Translations under genes and position numbers: made by a program
In this document: positions 4,835 through 61,334 of the stretch, one piece after another
Numbering within the stretch: position 1 is the stretch's first letter
Layout of the letters: each line of letters begins with the position of its first letter
Notes under the pieces: model-generated
Databases searched by the model: none
What the model saw: the letters and a program-made list of their open reading frames with translations, nothing else
Told to the model about the DNA's origin: nothing
Source of the DNA: an uncultured Opitutales bacterium
Lineage (GTDB): Bacteria > Verrucomicrobiota > Verrucomicrobiia > Opitutales > CAZQIE01
Assembly (NCBI GenBank): GCA_964593675.1
Contig: CAZQIE010000004.1
Span: forward strand, 7,267 to 71,266
Length of the DNA: 64,000 bases
Reading direction: 5' to 3'

Positions 4835-4866
4835 AAAGGCGGCCCCGCAACGGGCCGCCTTTTTTT
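4835..4866 (+). terminator. Rho-independent terminator of the gyrBA operon
   Basis: Stem aaaggcggccc / gggccgccttt with a short loop, followed by a run of six T's, about 20 nt after the gyrA stop. Confidence 0.85.
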
Positions 4867-4914
4867 GTCCCGTGCCCGAAGCAACCACCCGCGGCACAGC
4901 GAAGCCACAACCCC

Positions 4915-4960
4915 CCCCGTGCAGTTCACAGGATCGGGGCCACGCTCCGCGTGGTTCAGG
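4915..4960 (+). repeat. Degenerate solo copy of the dispersed ATCGGCCCACGCCGTGCG-family repeat
   Basis: ccccgtgcagttcacaggatcggggccacgctccgcgtggttcagg aligns by eye with the unit cccgtgcagcccaccagaatcggcccacgccgtgcgtgg seen at 24.0, 31.7 and 39.9 kb. Confidence 0.35.
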
Positions 4961-5087
4961 CTTAACAAAGCGCTGACGCCCGTTATGCTGCCCGGAGCAC
5001 AGGATGCCGCCCCTAGGCCGTATCTGAAACATAAGTATCAGCGCAGCAGCGGCTTGCATTGCAAGCTCCCTGTCGTTTCCCTTGCCA

Positions 5088-8272: not shown

Positions 8273-8447
8273 CCCACGCCACCCCCTGCGCCCACTTCCG
8301 GGGACTTTTTACCCCGCGCCGTCCGGGGGCGCCGCCGCTCGGGGCAAGCGGCATCTTGAAGTAAACCGCCCTAGGGCCAAAAAGGAACACTTTGGCGTCA
8401 ACATTTCGTTTGCACCGCCAAGAACGCCTCCCATATTTGCAGGCGCC

Positions 8448-22964: not shown

Positions 22965-23822
22965 ATGAGCCGTTACACAAAGGAAGAGAAACTCGCCGCC
23001 ATCTCAAAGCACACCTGGTACCACAGGATCGACCTCGGCGACGGCGTCGTCACCCCCGGCCACGATTGGGAGCACCTCTGGAATATGATCCGCGCCGTGC
23101 GCTCCAAAGTTTCCTACGCGGAACGCGCCGTCCTTGATGTTGGCAGTTGGGACGGCCTCTGGGCCTTCGAAGCCGAAAAACTCGGCGCCCGCTACGTCGT
23201 CGCCACCGACTGCGCTCCCGCTCACCCTCTCGAAAACACGTGCGTCGACGCCAAAATGCCTCACGCCCTCGAGAAGTTTCTCCTGCTGCGCGAAATCCTC
23301 GGCAGTAAAGTCATCCCCTTCTACAACGCCTCCCCCTACAACCTCACCCAGCGCCTTGATTCCCTCATCTTCCTCAAGGCGAATTGCGAACACCTCAAGT
23401 TCGACATCGTTCAGCACTTCGGCGTCCTCTACCACCTCCGCAACCCCCTCCATTCCCTCTCGGAAGCCCGCAACGTCCTCAAAGACAACGGCACCCTCAT
23501 CCTTGAGACAGCCTGCCTCCTCAACGAGCCCCGTTCCGTCATGCTCTTCAACGGCGCCGGCGAGCCCAGCACGCTACGCTTCTATAAAGGCCGCACAAAC
23601 TGGTGGGCCCCCTCTTGGCTCTGTCTGAAAGAGATGCTCCAAACCTGCTTCCTCGAACCCCTCGAAGATACCGCCGAATTCCTTACCGTCGCCGGCTATG
23701 GCGACGTCGGCCGCGTGGCCGTGGCGTGCAGGGCCATCCCGGTAACTGAAGGCGATGCCAGGCTCCGCGCAGAAATGGCCCACTATTTCCGCAACCCCGA
23801 CCACATCCCGTATTTCGCCTAG
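22965..23822 (+). CDS. Class I SAM-dependent methyltransferase (CmoB/DUF1698-like), copy 1
   Basis: WYHRIDLGDGVVTPG, motif I VLDVGSWDGLWAFEAEKLGA, and FDIVQHFGVLYHLRNPL. The stop TAG at 23820-23822 is formed at the junction with the MITE-like element. Confidence 0.8.
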   Translation: MSRYTKEEKLAAISKHTWYHRIDLGDGVVTPGHDWEHLWNMIRAVRSKVSYAERAVLDVGSWDGLWAFEAEKLGARYVVATDCAPAHPLENTCVDAKMPHALEKFLLLREILGSKVIPFYNASPYNLTQRLDSLIFLKANCEHLKFDIVQHFGVLYHLRNPLHSLSEARNVLKDNGTLILETACLLNEPRSVMLFNGAGEPSTLRFYKGRTNWWAPSWLCLKEMLQTCFLEPLEDTAEFLTVAGYGDVGRVAVACRAIPVTEGDARLRAEMAHYFRNPDHIPYFA

Positions 23823-24134
23823 AGCGTATTCAGTTCAAGTTGTCGCGCCTGTTGGACATCCCTCCTTCATCCGCGCCGACGTGAGGAAGGGGCGTCCCCA
23901 CTGCCAAGGGCCGCATTCCGAGCCGTGCAGATGAACGAATCGGCCCACGCCGTGCGCCCAGCACCCGTGTCTTAGCGGAGCGGCAGATATGCCCGTGCAG
24001 CCCACCAGAATCGGCCCACGCCGTGCGCCCAGCACCCGTGTCTTAGCGGAGCGGCAGACTCGCCCGTGCAGCCCACCAGAATCGGCCCACGCCGTGCGTG
24101 GCGGCGCACGCGACAACCTGAAACCAAACTGCTC
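23822..24134. mobile_element. MITE-like palindromic element (copy 1, 313 bp) with TA flanks and internal tandem repeats
   Basis: Left end gagcgtattcagTTCAAGTTGTCGCG. The reverse complement of the right end is gagcagtttggtTTCAGGTTGTCGCG. TA lies at 23820-21 and 24135-36. The element fills the whole gap between two convergent genes. Confidence 0.6.
23922..24105 (+). repeat. Tandem repeat, about 70-bp unit x 2.7, containing three perfect ATCGGCCCACGCCGTGCG cores
   Basis: The unit gcccgtgcagcccaccagaatcggcccacgccgtgcgcccagcacccgtgtcttagcggagcggcaga starts near 23922, 23991 and 24062. The whole unit is conserved, so there are no unique spacers. Confidence 0.85.
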
Positions 24135-25468
24135 TATTTCTTCACCGCAAGGAAGCGCAGGAACATCCCCGCCACCTCTGTGCAGGCGTCGTCCGAGATG
24201 ACTGTCACCTCGAAGCCGCGCCGCGTGAAGAACGCCATCAGGCTTTCGGGCTCGAAGAAATGCCCCACCGAGGCAATACCTGCCGTGTTGTTGATTGTCT
24301 CGTGATAAGGCTTTGTCCGGTACGTCCCCTTCTCGTCGCTCATTTCCTCATACGGGTATGACGGCAGCGTCTCACTCGCGCAGAACCCCCCGATGTAGAT
24401 CCGGTCCGAAAGCGTCGTCAGGTTCTCAAGCAACAGCAGCGGGTGAGGGGAGTGGTAGTATGAACCATGGCAAACGACCAGGTCATACCGCCCGTACCGC
24501 CTCGCATCAGCATTGAGGAAGTCGTCCGTGAAAACACGCACATGATCCCAGCCCATCGCGTTGCACAACGTCGACGTCTTCAGCACGTTTTCCGCACGCC
24601 CTTCGACGCAGTCCAACTGTGCCACGCCGGCGCGCACAAGCGCCGCCGTCTGGTAGCCCTCCCACGGACCAAATTCGAGCACCCGCAAGCCCTTCAGCGG
24701 CACCAGCGCGTCCACGCGGTCCGTCATCCCCCATTCCCGCCCGCTCGCATACAGGCCCAGCAGTTCCTCCAATGTCTTCGCCCGATACGTGAAGTGCTGC
24801 CACAAATGCGCGATCTGCGCAAAAGGCCACAGCACCTGATGCAGTGAAACCATCCGGCACGGCAACTCCTTCGCCAGTTCCGAGACCTGCGACCATTCCC
24901 CGTTGTTCACCGGGTGGCGCGCAAGCACCGCAAGCTCCGACTTCCCAAAACCCGCCGGCGCGAAATCACCGAACGCCCAATCCACCACCCGCACCCGGGC
25001 GTCCTTTGCCCCCGCTGCCGCCAAGCCTTCGCGGATCGCCCGCGCTTCGCCCAGCAGCCAGATCACCTTCGCCTTCTCCTTCTTCAACCGCTCCAGCACC
25101 AGCGTCCAGCAGTGCTGTGAGTTCTCAATCGTCCGCACCGCCGCAGCGTCCCGGTCCAACGCCCATAGCGCCGCCGACTGTATCTTCCATTTCGATATAC
25201 CAAGCTCATTTACAAGCTGGTTCCGGATCGCCTCCTCCGCCTGCGAAGCAATGAGAATCGTTTCGCAATCCAGCGTCTTCAACTCCACCGGAGAGATCAC
25301 AGGCTTCCCGCAGACCACCGTCCCGTGCTTCGCCGCGTCATTGTCCGCAAAACAGCAAATATCGAAAACCTGCGACAAACCCTCAAATGACGCCTGCCCT
25401 GCTACGCCTGCACCAAAAACGACCGCCTTCACGCGGTTGCCAAATGTCCTCCGGGAACCGTTCTGCAT
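24134..25468 (-). CDS. Three-part protein: N-terminal Rossmann-like module, unknown middle region, C-terminal class I methyltransferase
   Basis: The internal ATG at 25468 gives MQNGS..KAVVFGAGVAGQASFEGL..FADNDAAKHGTVVCGKPV. The C-terminus has LRVLEFGPWEGYQTAAL and DLVVCHGSYYHSPHPL. The stop TAG is the complement of 24134-24136, at the MITE edge. Confidence 0.7.
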   Translation of the reverse strand: MQNGSRRTFGNRVKAVVFGAGVAGQASFEGLSQVFDICCFADNDAAKHGTVVCGKPVISPVELKTLDCETILIASQAEEAIRNQLVNELGISKWKIQSAALWALDRDAAAVRTIENSQHCWTLVLERLKKEKAKVIWLLGEARAIREGLAAAGAKDARVRVVDWAFGDFAPAGFGKSELAVLARHPVNNGEWSQVSELAKELPCRMVSLHQVLWPFAQIAHLWQHFTYRAKTLEELLGLYASGREWGMTDRVDALVPLKGLRVLEFGPWEGYQTAALVRAGVAQLDCVEGRAENVLKTSTLCNAMGWDHVRVFTDDFLNADARRYGRYDLVVCHGSYYHSPHPLLLLENLTTLSDRIYIGGFCASETLPSYPYEEMSDEKGTYRTKPYHETINNTAGIASVGHFFEPESLMAFFTRRGFEVTVISDDACTEVAGMFLRFLAVKK

Positions 25469-25660
25469 GGGAAATGGGGGAATTCTGGATCCGACCTTAT
25501 TGCCGGCATCCGCTCTCTCCCACTGGACCCCGAAACGCCCCCTCCCGTCAAACCTTATAGCGCGTCCCCAATCAGGCTTGCGGGCATTTCGCGCCAGCCT
25601 TTTCCTCAATCCATCCACACGCGCGCGCACCGCGTCCCCTCAACTTCCCCCTCCCAAATC

Positions 25661-26518
25661 ATGAGCCGTTACACCAAGGAAGAGAAAATCGCCGCCATCT
25701 CCAAATACGCATGGTACCACCGCATCGACCTTGGCGACGGCGTCGTCACTCCCGGCAACGAGTGGGAACACCTCTGGAACATGATCCGCGCCGTCCGCTC
25801 GAAAATCGCCTATGAGCAACGCGCCGTTCTCGACATCGGCAGCTGGGACGGCCTCTGGGCCTTCGAAGCCGAAAAGCTCGGCGCCCGCTACGTTGTCGCC
25901 ACCGACTGCGCACCCGCCTACCCGTTCGAGAATACGGGCGTCGACTGGCAGCACGCCCTCGAGAAATTCCTTCTCCTGCGCGACATCCTTGGCAGCAAAG
26001 CCATCCCCTTCTACAACGCCTCCCCCTACAACCTCACCCAGCGCCTCGACTCCCTCATTTTCCGCAAGACCGGCTGCGAGCACCTGAAGTTCGATATTGT
26101 CCAGCACCTCGGCGTCCTCTACCACCTCCGCAACCCCCTGCACGCGCTTTCCGAGGCCCGCAACGTCCTCAAAGACAACGGCACCCTCCTCGTCGAGACC
26201 GCCTGCATCCTCGACGAGCCCCGCTCCGTCATGCTCTTCAACGGCGCCGGAGATCCCAAAACCTTCCGCATCTGTGCGGACCGCAGCACCTGGTGGGCGC
26301 CCTCCTGGCCCTGCCTCAAGGAGATGCTCCAGACATCCTTCTTCGAGCCCCTTGAAGACACCGTCCAATTCCTCCCGCTGAAAGGTCAGCCCCAAGACAA
26401 CATCGGCCGCGTTGCCGTCGCCTGCCGGGCCGTTCCCGTCGACAAGGGCGACCCCGCCCTTCGCGCCGAAATGGCCCATTACTTCCGCAATCCCGACCAC
26501 ATTCCCTTCTTCGGCTAA
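25661..26518 (+). CDS. Class I SAM-dependent methyltransferase (CmoB/DUF1698-like), copy 2
   Basis: 285 aa, the same length as 22965-23822 and roughly four-fifths identical by eye along the full length. The stop TAA at 26516-18 again abuts a MITE-like element. Confidence 0.8.
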   Translation: MSRYTKEEKIAAISKYAWYHRIDLGDGVVTPGNEWEHLWNMIRAVRSKIAYEQRAVLDIGSWDGLWAFEAEKLGARYVVATDCAPAYPFENTGVDWQHALEKFLLLRDILGSKAIPFYNASPYNLTQRLDSLIFRKTGCEHLKFDIVQHLGVLYHLRNPLHALSEARNVLKDNGTLLVETACILDEPRSVMLFNGAGDPKTFRICADRSTWWAPSWPCLKEMLQTSFFEPLEDTVQFLPLKGQPQDNIGRVAVACRAVPVDKGDPALRAEMAHYFRNPDHIPFFG

Positions 26519-26640
26519 AGCGTTTCTGCTTCAACTTGTCGCGCTGTTCCCTTCATTCCGTTACTCGCGCCGACGCGAGGATGGGGCGCCCACGCTCGCC
26601 GCAGGGCCGGCGTATGCGACACCCTAAGGCAGAAGTGCCC
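26518..26640. mobile_element. MITE-like element (copy 2a)
   Basis: aagcgtttctgcTTCAACTTGTCGCG left arm, gcgccgacgcgagg core, degenerate right arm gcgacaccctaaggcagaagtgccc. TA at 26516-17 and 26641-42. Confidence 0.5.
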
Positions 26641-26642
26641 TA

Positions 26643-26725: not shown

Positions 26726-26763
26726 GGGGCGTATCCGGTTCACGGATACGCCCCTTTCTCTTT
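26726..26763 (+). terminator. Perfect 12-bp hairpin plus T-rich tail
   Basis: ggggcgtatccg gttca cggatacgcccc followed by tttctcttt. It lies between convergent genes and directly abuts the stop of the minus-strand gene at 26762, so it may act in both directions. Confidence 0.6.
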
Positions 26764-31690: not shown

Positions 31691-31860
31691 AACGCGAAGC
31701 GGCAGCCCCCACCCGTGCAGCCCAACAGAATCGGCCCACGCCGTGCGTGCCAGCCCAGACCTTACCAAAACCGCCGCAGAAACGCGAAGCGGCAGCCCAA
31801 CCCGTGCAGCCCAACAGAATCGGCCCACGCCGTGCGTGGCGGCGTGCGTGGTTTGATCCG
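31691..31860 (+). repeat. Tandem repeat, about 90-bp unit x 2, with two perfect ATCGGCCCACGCCGTGCG cores
   Basis: The unit aacgcgaagcggcagccc..cccgtgcagcccaacagaatcggcccacgccgtgcg occurs at 31691 and 31781. Confidence 0.8.
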
Positions 31861-39858: not shown

Positions 39859-39862
39859 CCAC

Positions 39863-39997
39863 GCACGGCGTGGGCCGATCCTGTGAGCCATACGGCGTGG
39901 CTGTCGCTGCGCTTGTCTTGGGCGGTAGAGCGCACGGCGTGGGCCGATCCTGTGAGCCATTCGGCGTGGGCTGTCGCTACGCTTGTTTTCGGGCAGT
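39863..39997 (-). repeat. Tandem repeat, about 69-bp unit x 2, reverse orientation, with two perfect cores
   Basis: cgcacggcgtgggccgatcctgtgagccat(a/t)cggcgtgg(g)ctgtcgct(g/a)cgcttgt.. occurs at 39863 and 39932. A partial third copy, gtagagcgcacggcgtgggcgtg, lies at 40113-40135. Confidence 0.8.
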
Positions 39998-40106
39998 TTT
40001 ACTTCAGGTTGTCGCGTGCACCGACGCTGCGGCGAGCGTGGACGCCCCAGCCTCGCGCCGGCGCGGGCAAAAAGGCCCGGCTGTTGATGCGACAACTTAA
40101 ACTGGA
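39992..40106. mobile_element. MITE-like element (copy 3), boundaries uncertain
   Basis: gggcagttttacTTCAGGTTGTCGCG left arm, caccgacgctgcggcgagcgtggacgcccc core, TGCGACAACTTAA right arm. It is embedded between copies of the other repeat family. Confidence 0.4.
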
Positions 40107-40203
40107 CGTGTTTTAGGCCGTAGAGCGCACGGCGTGGGCGTGTGGGATGACGCGAGATCGAGACTTGCGTTGAGGGACAGGTGTGTCCAATTTTGCCGCA
40201 CGC

Positions 40204-54564: not shown

Positions 54565-55320
54565 ATGGACGACCAGACCCGCATCGCAAACCTCGAGCAG
54601 CAGGTGGCCGCGCTCCAGCAGACGCTGGCTGAGTTGCGCCGCGACCTGCGGGAGCGCCTCGACGAAAAAATCCCCGACATGCTCGTGGACGTCACGCAGC
54701 AGCTCGAACACCGCGAGCGTCTCCACCGGCTCTTACAGTGGGGACCCGGCCACCTCCCGCCGACGCGGCGCTGGGCGCTGTCTCCCGACGCGCTGATCGT
54801 GATGGTCGAGCACCTCCTGGCCCACCCGTGCAAGCGGCTCGTGGAGTGCGGAAGCGGCGTCTCGACGGTCGCCTTTGCGCGCCTGCTCCAGCTTCAGGGC
54901 GGGGCAGGGCACCTCTACAGTCTGGAATCCAACGAGGCGTTTGCGGGGCAGGTTGCGGGCTGGCTCCGCGAGCTTGGGCTTGAGCGCTTCGTGACCCTGA
55001 TCACGGGCACGCGCTCATACACGTTCCAGGGCGTCTCGTTCAACTGGTATGAGCAGCGCGGCCTGACGACCGAGCCGATCGACTTCCTGCTGGTCGATGG
55101 CCCGCCCACCAACGACTCGCCCCTCGCCCGCTACCCGGCGGCGCCCATCCTCTTCCCCCGCCTCGCACCGGGCGCCCACGTTTTTGTGGACGACTTCAAC
55201 CGGCCCGGCGAGCAGCGCATGTTCGAGGTCTGGAGGGCAGAGTTTCCGCTCTGGCAGCCGGCGCAGCGGCAGACGGAGAAGGGCTTGGGCGTGCTCATCA
55301 AGCCCGGCGCTGGCCATTAG
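54565..55320 (+). CDS. Class I SAM-dependent methyltransferase (Methyltransf_24-like) with an N-terminal coiled coil
   Basis: VECGSGVSTVAFA is motif I and FLLVDGPP is a post-II-like motif. The N-terminus RIANLEQQVAALQQTLAELRRDL is heptad-like. The stop TAG at 55318-20 sits at a MITE junction. Confidence 0.7.
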   Translation: MDDQTRIANLEQQVAALQQTLAELRRDLRERLDEKIPDMLVDVTQQLEHRERLHRLLQWGPGHLPPTRRWALSPDALIVMVEHLLAHPCKRLVECGSGVSTVAFARLLQLQGGAGHLYSLESNEAFAGQVAGWLRELGLERFVTLITGTRSYTFQGVSFNWYEQRGLTTEPIDFLLVDGPPTNDSPLARYPAAPILFPRLAPGAHVFVDDFNRPGEQRMFEVWRAEFPLWQPAQRQTEKGLGVLIKPGAGH

Positions 55321-55407
55321 AGCACATTCAGTCCGAGTGGTCTCACCTGTTAGGTCCCTCCTCCGTCCTCGCGTCGGCGCACGCGACAAACTGAAGGAGA
55401 ACTGCTC
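55320..55407. mobile_element. MITE-like element (copy 4, minimal 88-bp form)
   Basis: TA|gagcacattcagtcc...cctcgcgtcggcgcaCGCGACAAACTGAAggagaactgctc|TA. The GAGCA termini are inverted and TA lies on both flanks (55318-19, 55408-09). Confidence 0.6.
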
Positions 55408-55441
55408 TAGCCTGGAATTGCTCCTGGGAGCCTGGCCGCTT

Positions 55442-60792: not shown

Positions 60793-60837
60793 GGGCCTTC
60801 ATTTTCGCGGAAAAGTGCGGCCTTGAAGGCCATTTGC

Positions 60838-60942
60838 TGGTCACTCCGCCGACGCGGCGGCGAGCGTGACGCCCCTTTCTCGCGTCGGCGCGGGGTGTTG
60901 GAACGGCGTGAACGGGTGCGACGACTTGAAATACAACTGCCT
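60838..60942. repeat. Remnant of the MITE-like family (core plus right arm only)
   Basis: ccgccgacgcggcggcgagcgtgacgcccc matches the 40.0-kb copy core. The right arm is TGCGACGACTTGAAatacaactgcc. No recognisable left arm. Confidence 0.35.
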
Positions 60943-61034
60943 TAGCCTCTCTGGGGCAGCGGTTTGGGGGTTCGGCTCGAAGATTTTTCAGATTTTGTTC
61001 AAGTCTGTCAGGAGGCGGACGACTTCTATTCCTG

Positions 61035-61292: not shown

Positions 61293-61334
61293 GAGCCCCG
61301 GCCTCTTGCGAAGGGCCGGGGCTCACTTGTTTTC
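61293..61334. terminator. Rho-independent terminator between convergent genes
   Basis: gagccccggcc / ggccggggctc 11-bp stem, then acttgttttc. Confidence 0.7.

Follow-up and report, generated by a model that had tools for sequence, protein, structure and literature searches.

A probable family of old, decaying MITEs with TA-flanked ends in a GC-rich genome of the class Opitutae

Dispersed over a 64 kb window of bacterial DNA (the window being the whole stretch that was analysed) are six loci of a repeat of about 125 bp, hereafter family A, whose copies are probably lineage-restricted, old and decaying non-autonomous DNA transposons (MITEs). As is usual for bacterial MITEs, the element is small and without coding capacity, has terminal inverted repeats, and is present as dispersed copies in both orientations. 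Terminal repeats ending in TA, and TA targets, are likewise typical of such elements (PMC5896051).

Copies, termini and structure of family A

The family was defined by aligning the sequence around 14-mer arms, TTCARGTTGTCGCG, and by means of an nhmmer profile built from the copies. With at most one mismatch, the 14-mer occurs 5 times in the window for 0.04 expected; with at most two mismatches it flags eight arms, at positions 23834, 24109, 26530, 26655, 40003, 40088, 55382 and 60917. The profile detected exactly six loci in the 64 kb (E values from 1e-31 to 1e-7), four in plus and two in minus orientation, lying beside mutually unrelated genes. The motif being far above chance and the profile search finding six loci, the repeat family proposed by an earlier sequence-only reading of this DNA is real. 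Six of the arm positions given there were borne out, and two had to be shifted slightly (40004 to 40003, and 40079 to 40088). The copies are the following.

23822-23906, plus strand: left arm of copy c1, profile positions 1-85 (nhmmer E=7e-19); the left TA, 23820-23821, lies within the TAG stop of ORF 22965-23822
24093-24134, plus strand: right arm of c1, profile positions 84-127 (nhmmer E=8e-7); the TA at 24135-24136 lies within CTA 24134-24136
26518-26640, plus strand: c2, full-length, 123 nt (nhmmer E=6e-31); the left TA, 26516-26517, lies in the TAA stop of ORF 25661-26518
26643-~26716, plus strand: c3, left half only, profile positions 1-77 (nhmmer E=9e-15)
39991-40113, minus strand: c4, full-length, inside an array of a second repeat, family B (nhmmer E=4e-31)
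55320-55407, plus strand: c5, 88 nt, internally deleted (nhmmer E=9e-15); left TA 55318-55319, right TA 55408-55409
60836-60944, minus strand: c6, right end truncated, profile positions 1-108 (nhmmer E=2e-21); TA 60945-60946
8296-8373, plus strand: possible seventh, badly degraded remnant, a right half ending CCCTA (weak nhmmer E=0.06; GCGGCATCTTGAAGTAAACCGCCCTA compared with the right end of c4)

The possible seventh remnant sits between an arsR-like gene and carA. Two of the copies were first delimited otherwise: c3, drawn as 26643-~26725, is a left half ending at ~26716, and c4, drawn as 39992-40106, covers 39991-40113.

Copies measure 88-125 bp, well inside the range of about 50-500 bp of bacterial MITEs, and the consensus reads TA/GAGCRnnTTCnGTTCAAGTTGTCGCGCCTGTTGGAYATCCC...CCGCGCCGACGCGAGGnnGGGGCGTCCACGCTCGCCGCnGCGTCGGCGCACGCGACAACCTGAAnnnnAACTGCTC/TA, slashes marking the ends of the element. 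Its 26-bp terminal inverted repeats open with (G/A)AGC and close with the 14-mer, 8 variable nt lying in between; conservation is seen in the 14-mer and in the terminal GAGC. These repeats are imperfect, with 13-19 of the 26 positions identical within a copy (50-73%). We also considered whether the paired terminal repeats of a copy co-vary in a compensatory way, and rejected this, since within-copy identity was not above between-copy identity. The shared termini and palindromic core of the first reading are present, the ends being GAGC, AAGC or GGGC and the GC-rich core being GCGCCGACGCGAGG...CTCGCG(T/C)CGGCGC. The TA flanks noted there were also recovered, at 9 of the 10 intact ends, with no direct repeat longer than TA, and in 9 of 10 cases the end reads TAG or TAA, i.e. 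TA plus a purine. Pairwise identity between copies is 67-84%, which, together with the truncated copies, argues for an old family.

Neither a concatenated six-frame translation of all copies, made to look for spurious ORFs called within other copies, nor the 117-aa open frame that runs across c4 matched any protein among 5.8 and 1.8 billion.

Nesting with a second repeat and target duplication

Copy c1, first taken for a single element of 313 bp, is a composite in which a left family A arm, a family B array and a right family A arm follow each other: the 186 nt between the two arms are ~2.6 units of an unrelated 71-nt tandem repeat. Family B was found at the following places in the window.

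23907-24092, no strand assigned: array interrupting c1 (TRF 23937-24098, period 71, 2.3 copies, 96% matches; c1 aligned to c4 and c2)
39859-39988, resuming at 40116-40150, plus strand: array that was the target of the c4 insertion (TRF, 1.9 units of 69 nt)
31695-31850, minus strand: two units in a divergent intergenic region (repeat-family match)
4899-4971: degraded family B

Family B arrays are formed of units of ~70 nt, 2-3 in tandem, and are far better conserved than family A; seven units share an exact 16-mer core, CACGGCGTGGGCCGAT, and three of them lie within c1. Within the family B unit, GGTAGAGCGCAC is similar to TAGAGCRC, the terminus of family A. Two other identities were tried for family B and rejected: a structured RNA, because no such folding is predicted (z-scores +0.3 to +1.2), and a CRISPR array, because the "spacers" are near-identical to each other, which indicates tandem duplication. 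Nesting is thus observed both ways, with family B inside a copy of family A (c1) and a copy of family A (c4) inside a family B array.

The evidence for target duplication comes from the latter nested insertion and from one TA shared by c2 and c3. The dinucleotides flanking c4 are TC (39989-39990) and TA (40114-40115). Removing c4 together with one of them yields the family B junction GCTTGTTTTAGGCCGTAGAGCG, which aligns without gap to the neighbouring intact GCTTGTCTTGGGCGGTAGAGCG, while removing both, or neither, requires a 2-nt gap in the family B alignment. It follows that the TA pair does not just belong to the element, and the net insertion appears to be the element plus a short duplication. 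Copies c2 and c3 are joined through a single TA (26641-26642), as expected if the second insertion hit the duplicated TA of the first. At c5, excision of the element with one TA gives CAT TAG CCT, with the native stop at the same codon.

As to the length of the duplication, the net inserted length of 125 nt at c4 fits 123+2 (TA) and 121+4 (YTAR) equally. The four-base flanks are CTAA/CTAA for c2, CTAG/CTAT for c1, TTAG/CTAG for c5 and CTAA/CGAA for c4. YTAR is the target of IS5-group elements. Family A could accordingly be read as an element starting AGC...GCT, mobilised by a transposase of the IS5 superfamily with a 4-bp YTAR duplication; 3-4 of the 4 bases agree in each of these pairs, and the c4 insertion is compatible with it. 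This reading must nevertheless invoke a mutation of an outer base in 3 of the 4 pairs, where a 2-bp duplication needs only one, at c4; moreover, complementarity of the inner purine and pyrimidine holds in every copy, which is what bases belonging to the terminal repeat should show. We consider it rather unlikely, and the alignments favour a short duplication of which 2 bp (TA) is the best fit and 4 bp (YTAR) nearly as good. The first reading had pointed to MITEs derived from IS630/Tc1-mariner transposons. The MITE-like character was retained, and descent from that group in particular was not established: the 4-bp YTAR target fits about as well, and, as that reading had stated, a transposase domain is absent from the ~47 ORFs of the window. 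No parent insertion sequence with matching terminal repeats was found within the window either.

Copy c1 does not conform to a simple insertion. Upon excision of c1 with one TA, the minus-strand gene retains its TAG, the 22965 ORF passes from 285 to 341 codons and no stop is restored for this plus-strand gene, so that an extra rearrangement step is required. Bounded by two native stop codons and holding a family B array, c1 is probably a rearranged locus. The likeliest cause of its abutting two native stops is a later rearrangement, e.g. recombination between neighbouring copies: two copies, one per stop codon, would have recombined, and family B would have come to lie within c1 later in the history of the element.

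Stop codons, convergent genes and RNA structure

Overlaps between family A ends and stop codons, described in the first reading, are real: TAG 23820-23822, TAA 26516-26518 and TAG 55318-55320 (the stop of ORF 54565-55320) on the plus strand, and CTA 24134-24136, which is the TAG stop of the minus-strand ORF 24134-25630. We asked how often TA targeting would produce them. TA makes up 1.5% of the dinucleotides in this 65% GC window, and 35 of 47 stop codons contain it. Of about 198 TA sites at which insertion is tolerable, 35 (~18%) are in stop codons and 163 are intergenic. Finding 3-4 of 8-10 family A ends in stop codons then has p ~0.07-0.15, so that the overlaps, first presented as a special feature, are about as frequent as TA targeting predicts. 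Because both ends of the element begin with a purine, a copy landing in the TA of a TAA or TAG stop necessarily rebuilds a stop and leaves the protein unchanged. A stronger proposal would make A and B interacting mobile repeats, with purine-first TA ends adapted to target stop codons, reshaping gene 3' ends and possibly forming a bidirectional terminator where a copy occupies all of the space separating convergent genes, as c1 does; we hold this to be quite improbable.

The first reading had further proposed that c1 defines the C-terminus of the 22965 protein. The lengthening of the ORF upon removal of c1 stands, but the role in setting the C-terminus does not, for homologues end at the same position or within four residues of it. 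The 22965 protein ends in ...RNPDHIPYFA, its paralogue in ...RNPDHIPFFG, and the element-free homologue P0004 in ...RNPDFIPYYS, at the same aligned position; homologues P0003 and P0005 extend 3-4 residues further, and the nhmmer profile found no family A copy at these two loci. Element-free homologues ending at the same position imply that the methyltransferase stop is ancestral.

These genes, 22965-23822 and 25661-26518, encode methyltransferases of 285 aa of DUF1698/Methyltransf_9 type (84% nucleotide and 80% amino-acid identity), and belong to a glycosyltransferase/methyltransferase cluster, a family A copy standing at the end of each. Since c1 and c2 terminate tandem paralogues, they could descend from a single insertion predating the paralogue duplication; c1-c2 identity is 82%, not above that of other family A pairs. 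A tandem duplication of two genes, of which c1 and c2 would both be parts, was rejected, as no homology links the convergent genes that follow them.

Convergent genes flank four of the five family A loci, an arrangement found in 9 of the 44 intergenic regions, and the fifth locus is between a gene and tRNA-Leu. The location between convergent genes speaks for a different reading, in which family A would be no transposon relic but a set of RNA elements under selection in 3' UTRs, serving as terminators, stabilisers or RNase targets. So do the long hairpins, closed by the terminal repeats, into which full copies fold, with z-scores down to -2.95, and the fact that c1 fills a gap holding no other terminator. 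There is also a precedent in Correia elements (NEMIS), which are processed by RNase III via stem-loops in the transcript (PMC2229807). The z-scores are however modest (-0.4 to -2.95) and strand-dependent, truncated copies being worse than shuffled sequence, and in the consensus fold of five copies 0 of 18 pairs show a compensatory change, with an unfavourable covariation term. No T-tract follows the hairpins, although the organism has canonical terminators, and a terminator scan gave zero sites within family A copies, its sole strong site nearby being outside the elements.

26726-26763, plus strand: canonical intrinsic terminator, a 12-bp stem followed by TTTCTCTTT, downstream of c2 and c3 and outside the element

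This terminator comes directly after c2 and c3, which puts both elements in the 25661 gene's 3' UTR. Together with those at 4838-4866 and 61293-61324, it has the usual GC-rich stem and T-run, and the organism thus uses standard terminators independently of the repeats. Among Rfam 15 covariance models, only tRNA-Leu reached the gathering score, and the c1 and c4 regions had no match at E<=1. Both orientations are present, and several copies are truncated or deleted, which also argues against selected RNA elements; such an origin is improbable in our opinion. The terminator or RNA-processing role advanced in the first reading was not upheld by these folding, covariation and terminator results, and would be conceivable by comparison with Correia elements (PMC2229807). 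Family A copies are probably transcribed together with the neighbouring genes, as long hairpins in 3' UTRs.

We also envisaged a REP/BIME origin, in which family A would be a repeated extragenic palindrome disseminated by a transposase of the RAYT (Y1) kind. A location downstream of genes is known for GTAG-tagged REPs, whose termini supply the TAG stops of flanking ORFs (PMC3733652), and GGTAGAG is present within family B units. Against this, family A measures ~125 bp with 26-bp terminal repeats instead of being a palindrome of 20-40 nt, the bases preceding TAG at its ends vary (C, T, A, G) and so form no GTAG or CGTC tag, RAYT is absent from the window, and the nested c4 insertion shows a net gain of 2 nt, as expected of target duplication. 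A REP/BIME origin therefore seems very improbable.

We return to the reading of family A as decaying MITEs. A transposase supplied in trans, encoded outside the window, would have inserted the elements at TA-containing targets, with duplication of a short target. As TA is rare and the genome gene-dense, insertions that survived would be found mostly at gene 3' ends, including the TA of stop codons; this target choice and the purine ends would then explain, with no function assumed, why copies overlap stop codons and are enriched where genes converge. The copies would later have diverged to 67-84% identity, with truncations in c3 and c6 and an internal deletion in c5.

Host lineage and comparison with known repeats

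GyrA places the host, an uncultured bacterium, in the Verrucomicrobiota, class Opitutae; its best named matches, at 73-76% identity, are Rubellicoccus, Cerasicoccus and Opitutales MAGs, and the best unnamed one reaches 80%. The genomes that supply the nearest GyrA sequences (79-80% identity) have a GC content of 54-56%, compared with 65% here. No relative at >=90% protein identity was found among ~15 billion proteins, and each of 13 window proteins looked up was either a singleton cluster at 90% identity or had no exact sequence in the collection. The sole other occurrence is a 1.7-kb contig of run SRR12976788 (Logan), identical to the window. No empty site for family A came to light among these sequences.

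The ~47 ORFs of the window include gyrase, a polysaccharide glycosyltransferase/methyltransferase cluster, methylmalonyl-CoA enzymes and an RND efflux system. Genes for methylmalonyl-CoA mutase, carboxyltransferase and CoA-transferase at 42.6-51.8 kb are suggestive of a metabolism that forms propionate. Strand asymmetry is extreme, with a GC skew of -0.2 to -0.3 over 1-35 kb, +0.1 to +0.27 from ~35.7 kb, and near 0 beyond 47 kb. Left of the switch at ~35.7 kb, plus-strand genes have 0.63-0.78 C at the third codon position and minus-strand genes 0.21-0.29; this difference by strand indicates that the skew tracks the DNA strand, irrespective of which strand is coding. In its polarity the switch looks like a replication origin; no cluster of DnaA boxes was found, and genes left of the switch are mostly head-on. 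Each of the three compositional domains contains family A copies, which speaks against a chimeric contig.

Searches beyond the window were made with several parts of the element. The right-end 20-mer TTCAGNTTGTCGCGTGCRCC gave 19 singletons among GTDB species-representative genomes, all of them chance matches in coding sequence, and 27 chance matches among JGI metagenome contigs. The right-end 17-mer and the left-end 23-mer found nothing related among IMG/VR viral contigs, blastn of c4 had zero matches among PLSDB plasmids, and nhmmer profiles of families A and B found zero copies at any of the loci retrieved, among them the gyrA loci of the closest relatives and those of the nearest methyltransferase homologues. 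With no copy in the collections searched, family A is restricted to this lineage on the evidence available.

Literature searches on MITEs in Acidobacteria and Verrucomicrobia yielded no description of such a family for the group. Family A adds a MITE family for the class Opitutae (Verrucomicrobiota); the class of element itself is well known, and no new mechanism is revealed. It illustrates how TA-targeting elements with purine-first ends can occupy stop codons in a GC-rich genome without cost to their host. Such repeats also fragment assemblies of these organisms and can mislead the annotation of gene ends.

Correia elements of Neisseria have terminal inverted repeats of ~26 bp, TA at both ends and many copies near genes, all of which recall family A. 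To our knowledge, no transposase has been identified for them. They measure ~100-155 bp and are transcribed, forming RNA stem-loops (PMC2229807). Their sequences are unrelated to family A and they belong to a different phylum; family A copies are much more diverged (67-84%) than Correia copies, and the IHF site, promoter and RNase III processing of the latter are without support in the family A sequence.

The RUP elements of Streptococcus pneumoniae, intergenic units of ~107 bp with terminal inverted repeats and a TA target, are thought to be mobilised by IS630-Spn1 (PMC2229807). Their terminal repeats match a resident IS630-family element, whereas family A has no such partner within the window, and RUP copies are highly conserved and believed to be still mobile, whereas those of family A look old.

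ERIC units (or IRU) of enterobacteria are imperfect palindromes, for which a TA duplication and orientation-dependent effects on mRNA have been reported. They are intergenic units of 127 bp with MITE-like features (PMC2759123). Their sequence is unrelated to that of family A.

Lastly, most GTAG-tagged REPs are located downstream of genes, where the two flanking ORFs converge or point the same way, and their termini often supply the TAG stop of a flanking ORF (PMC3733652). These are palindromes of 20-40 nt that carry a GTAG or CGTC tag and are presumably moved by RAYT transposases, whereas family A, devoid of a GTAG tag, is an element of ~125 bp with terminal repeats and, as far as the nested copy indicates, a short target duplication.
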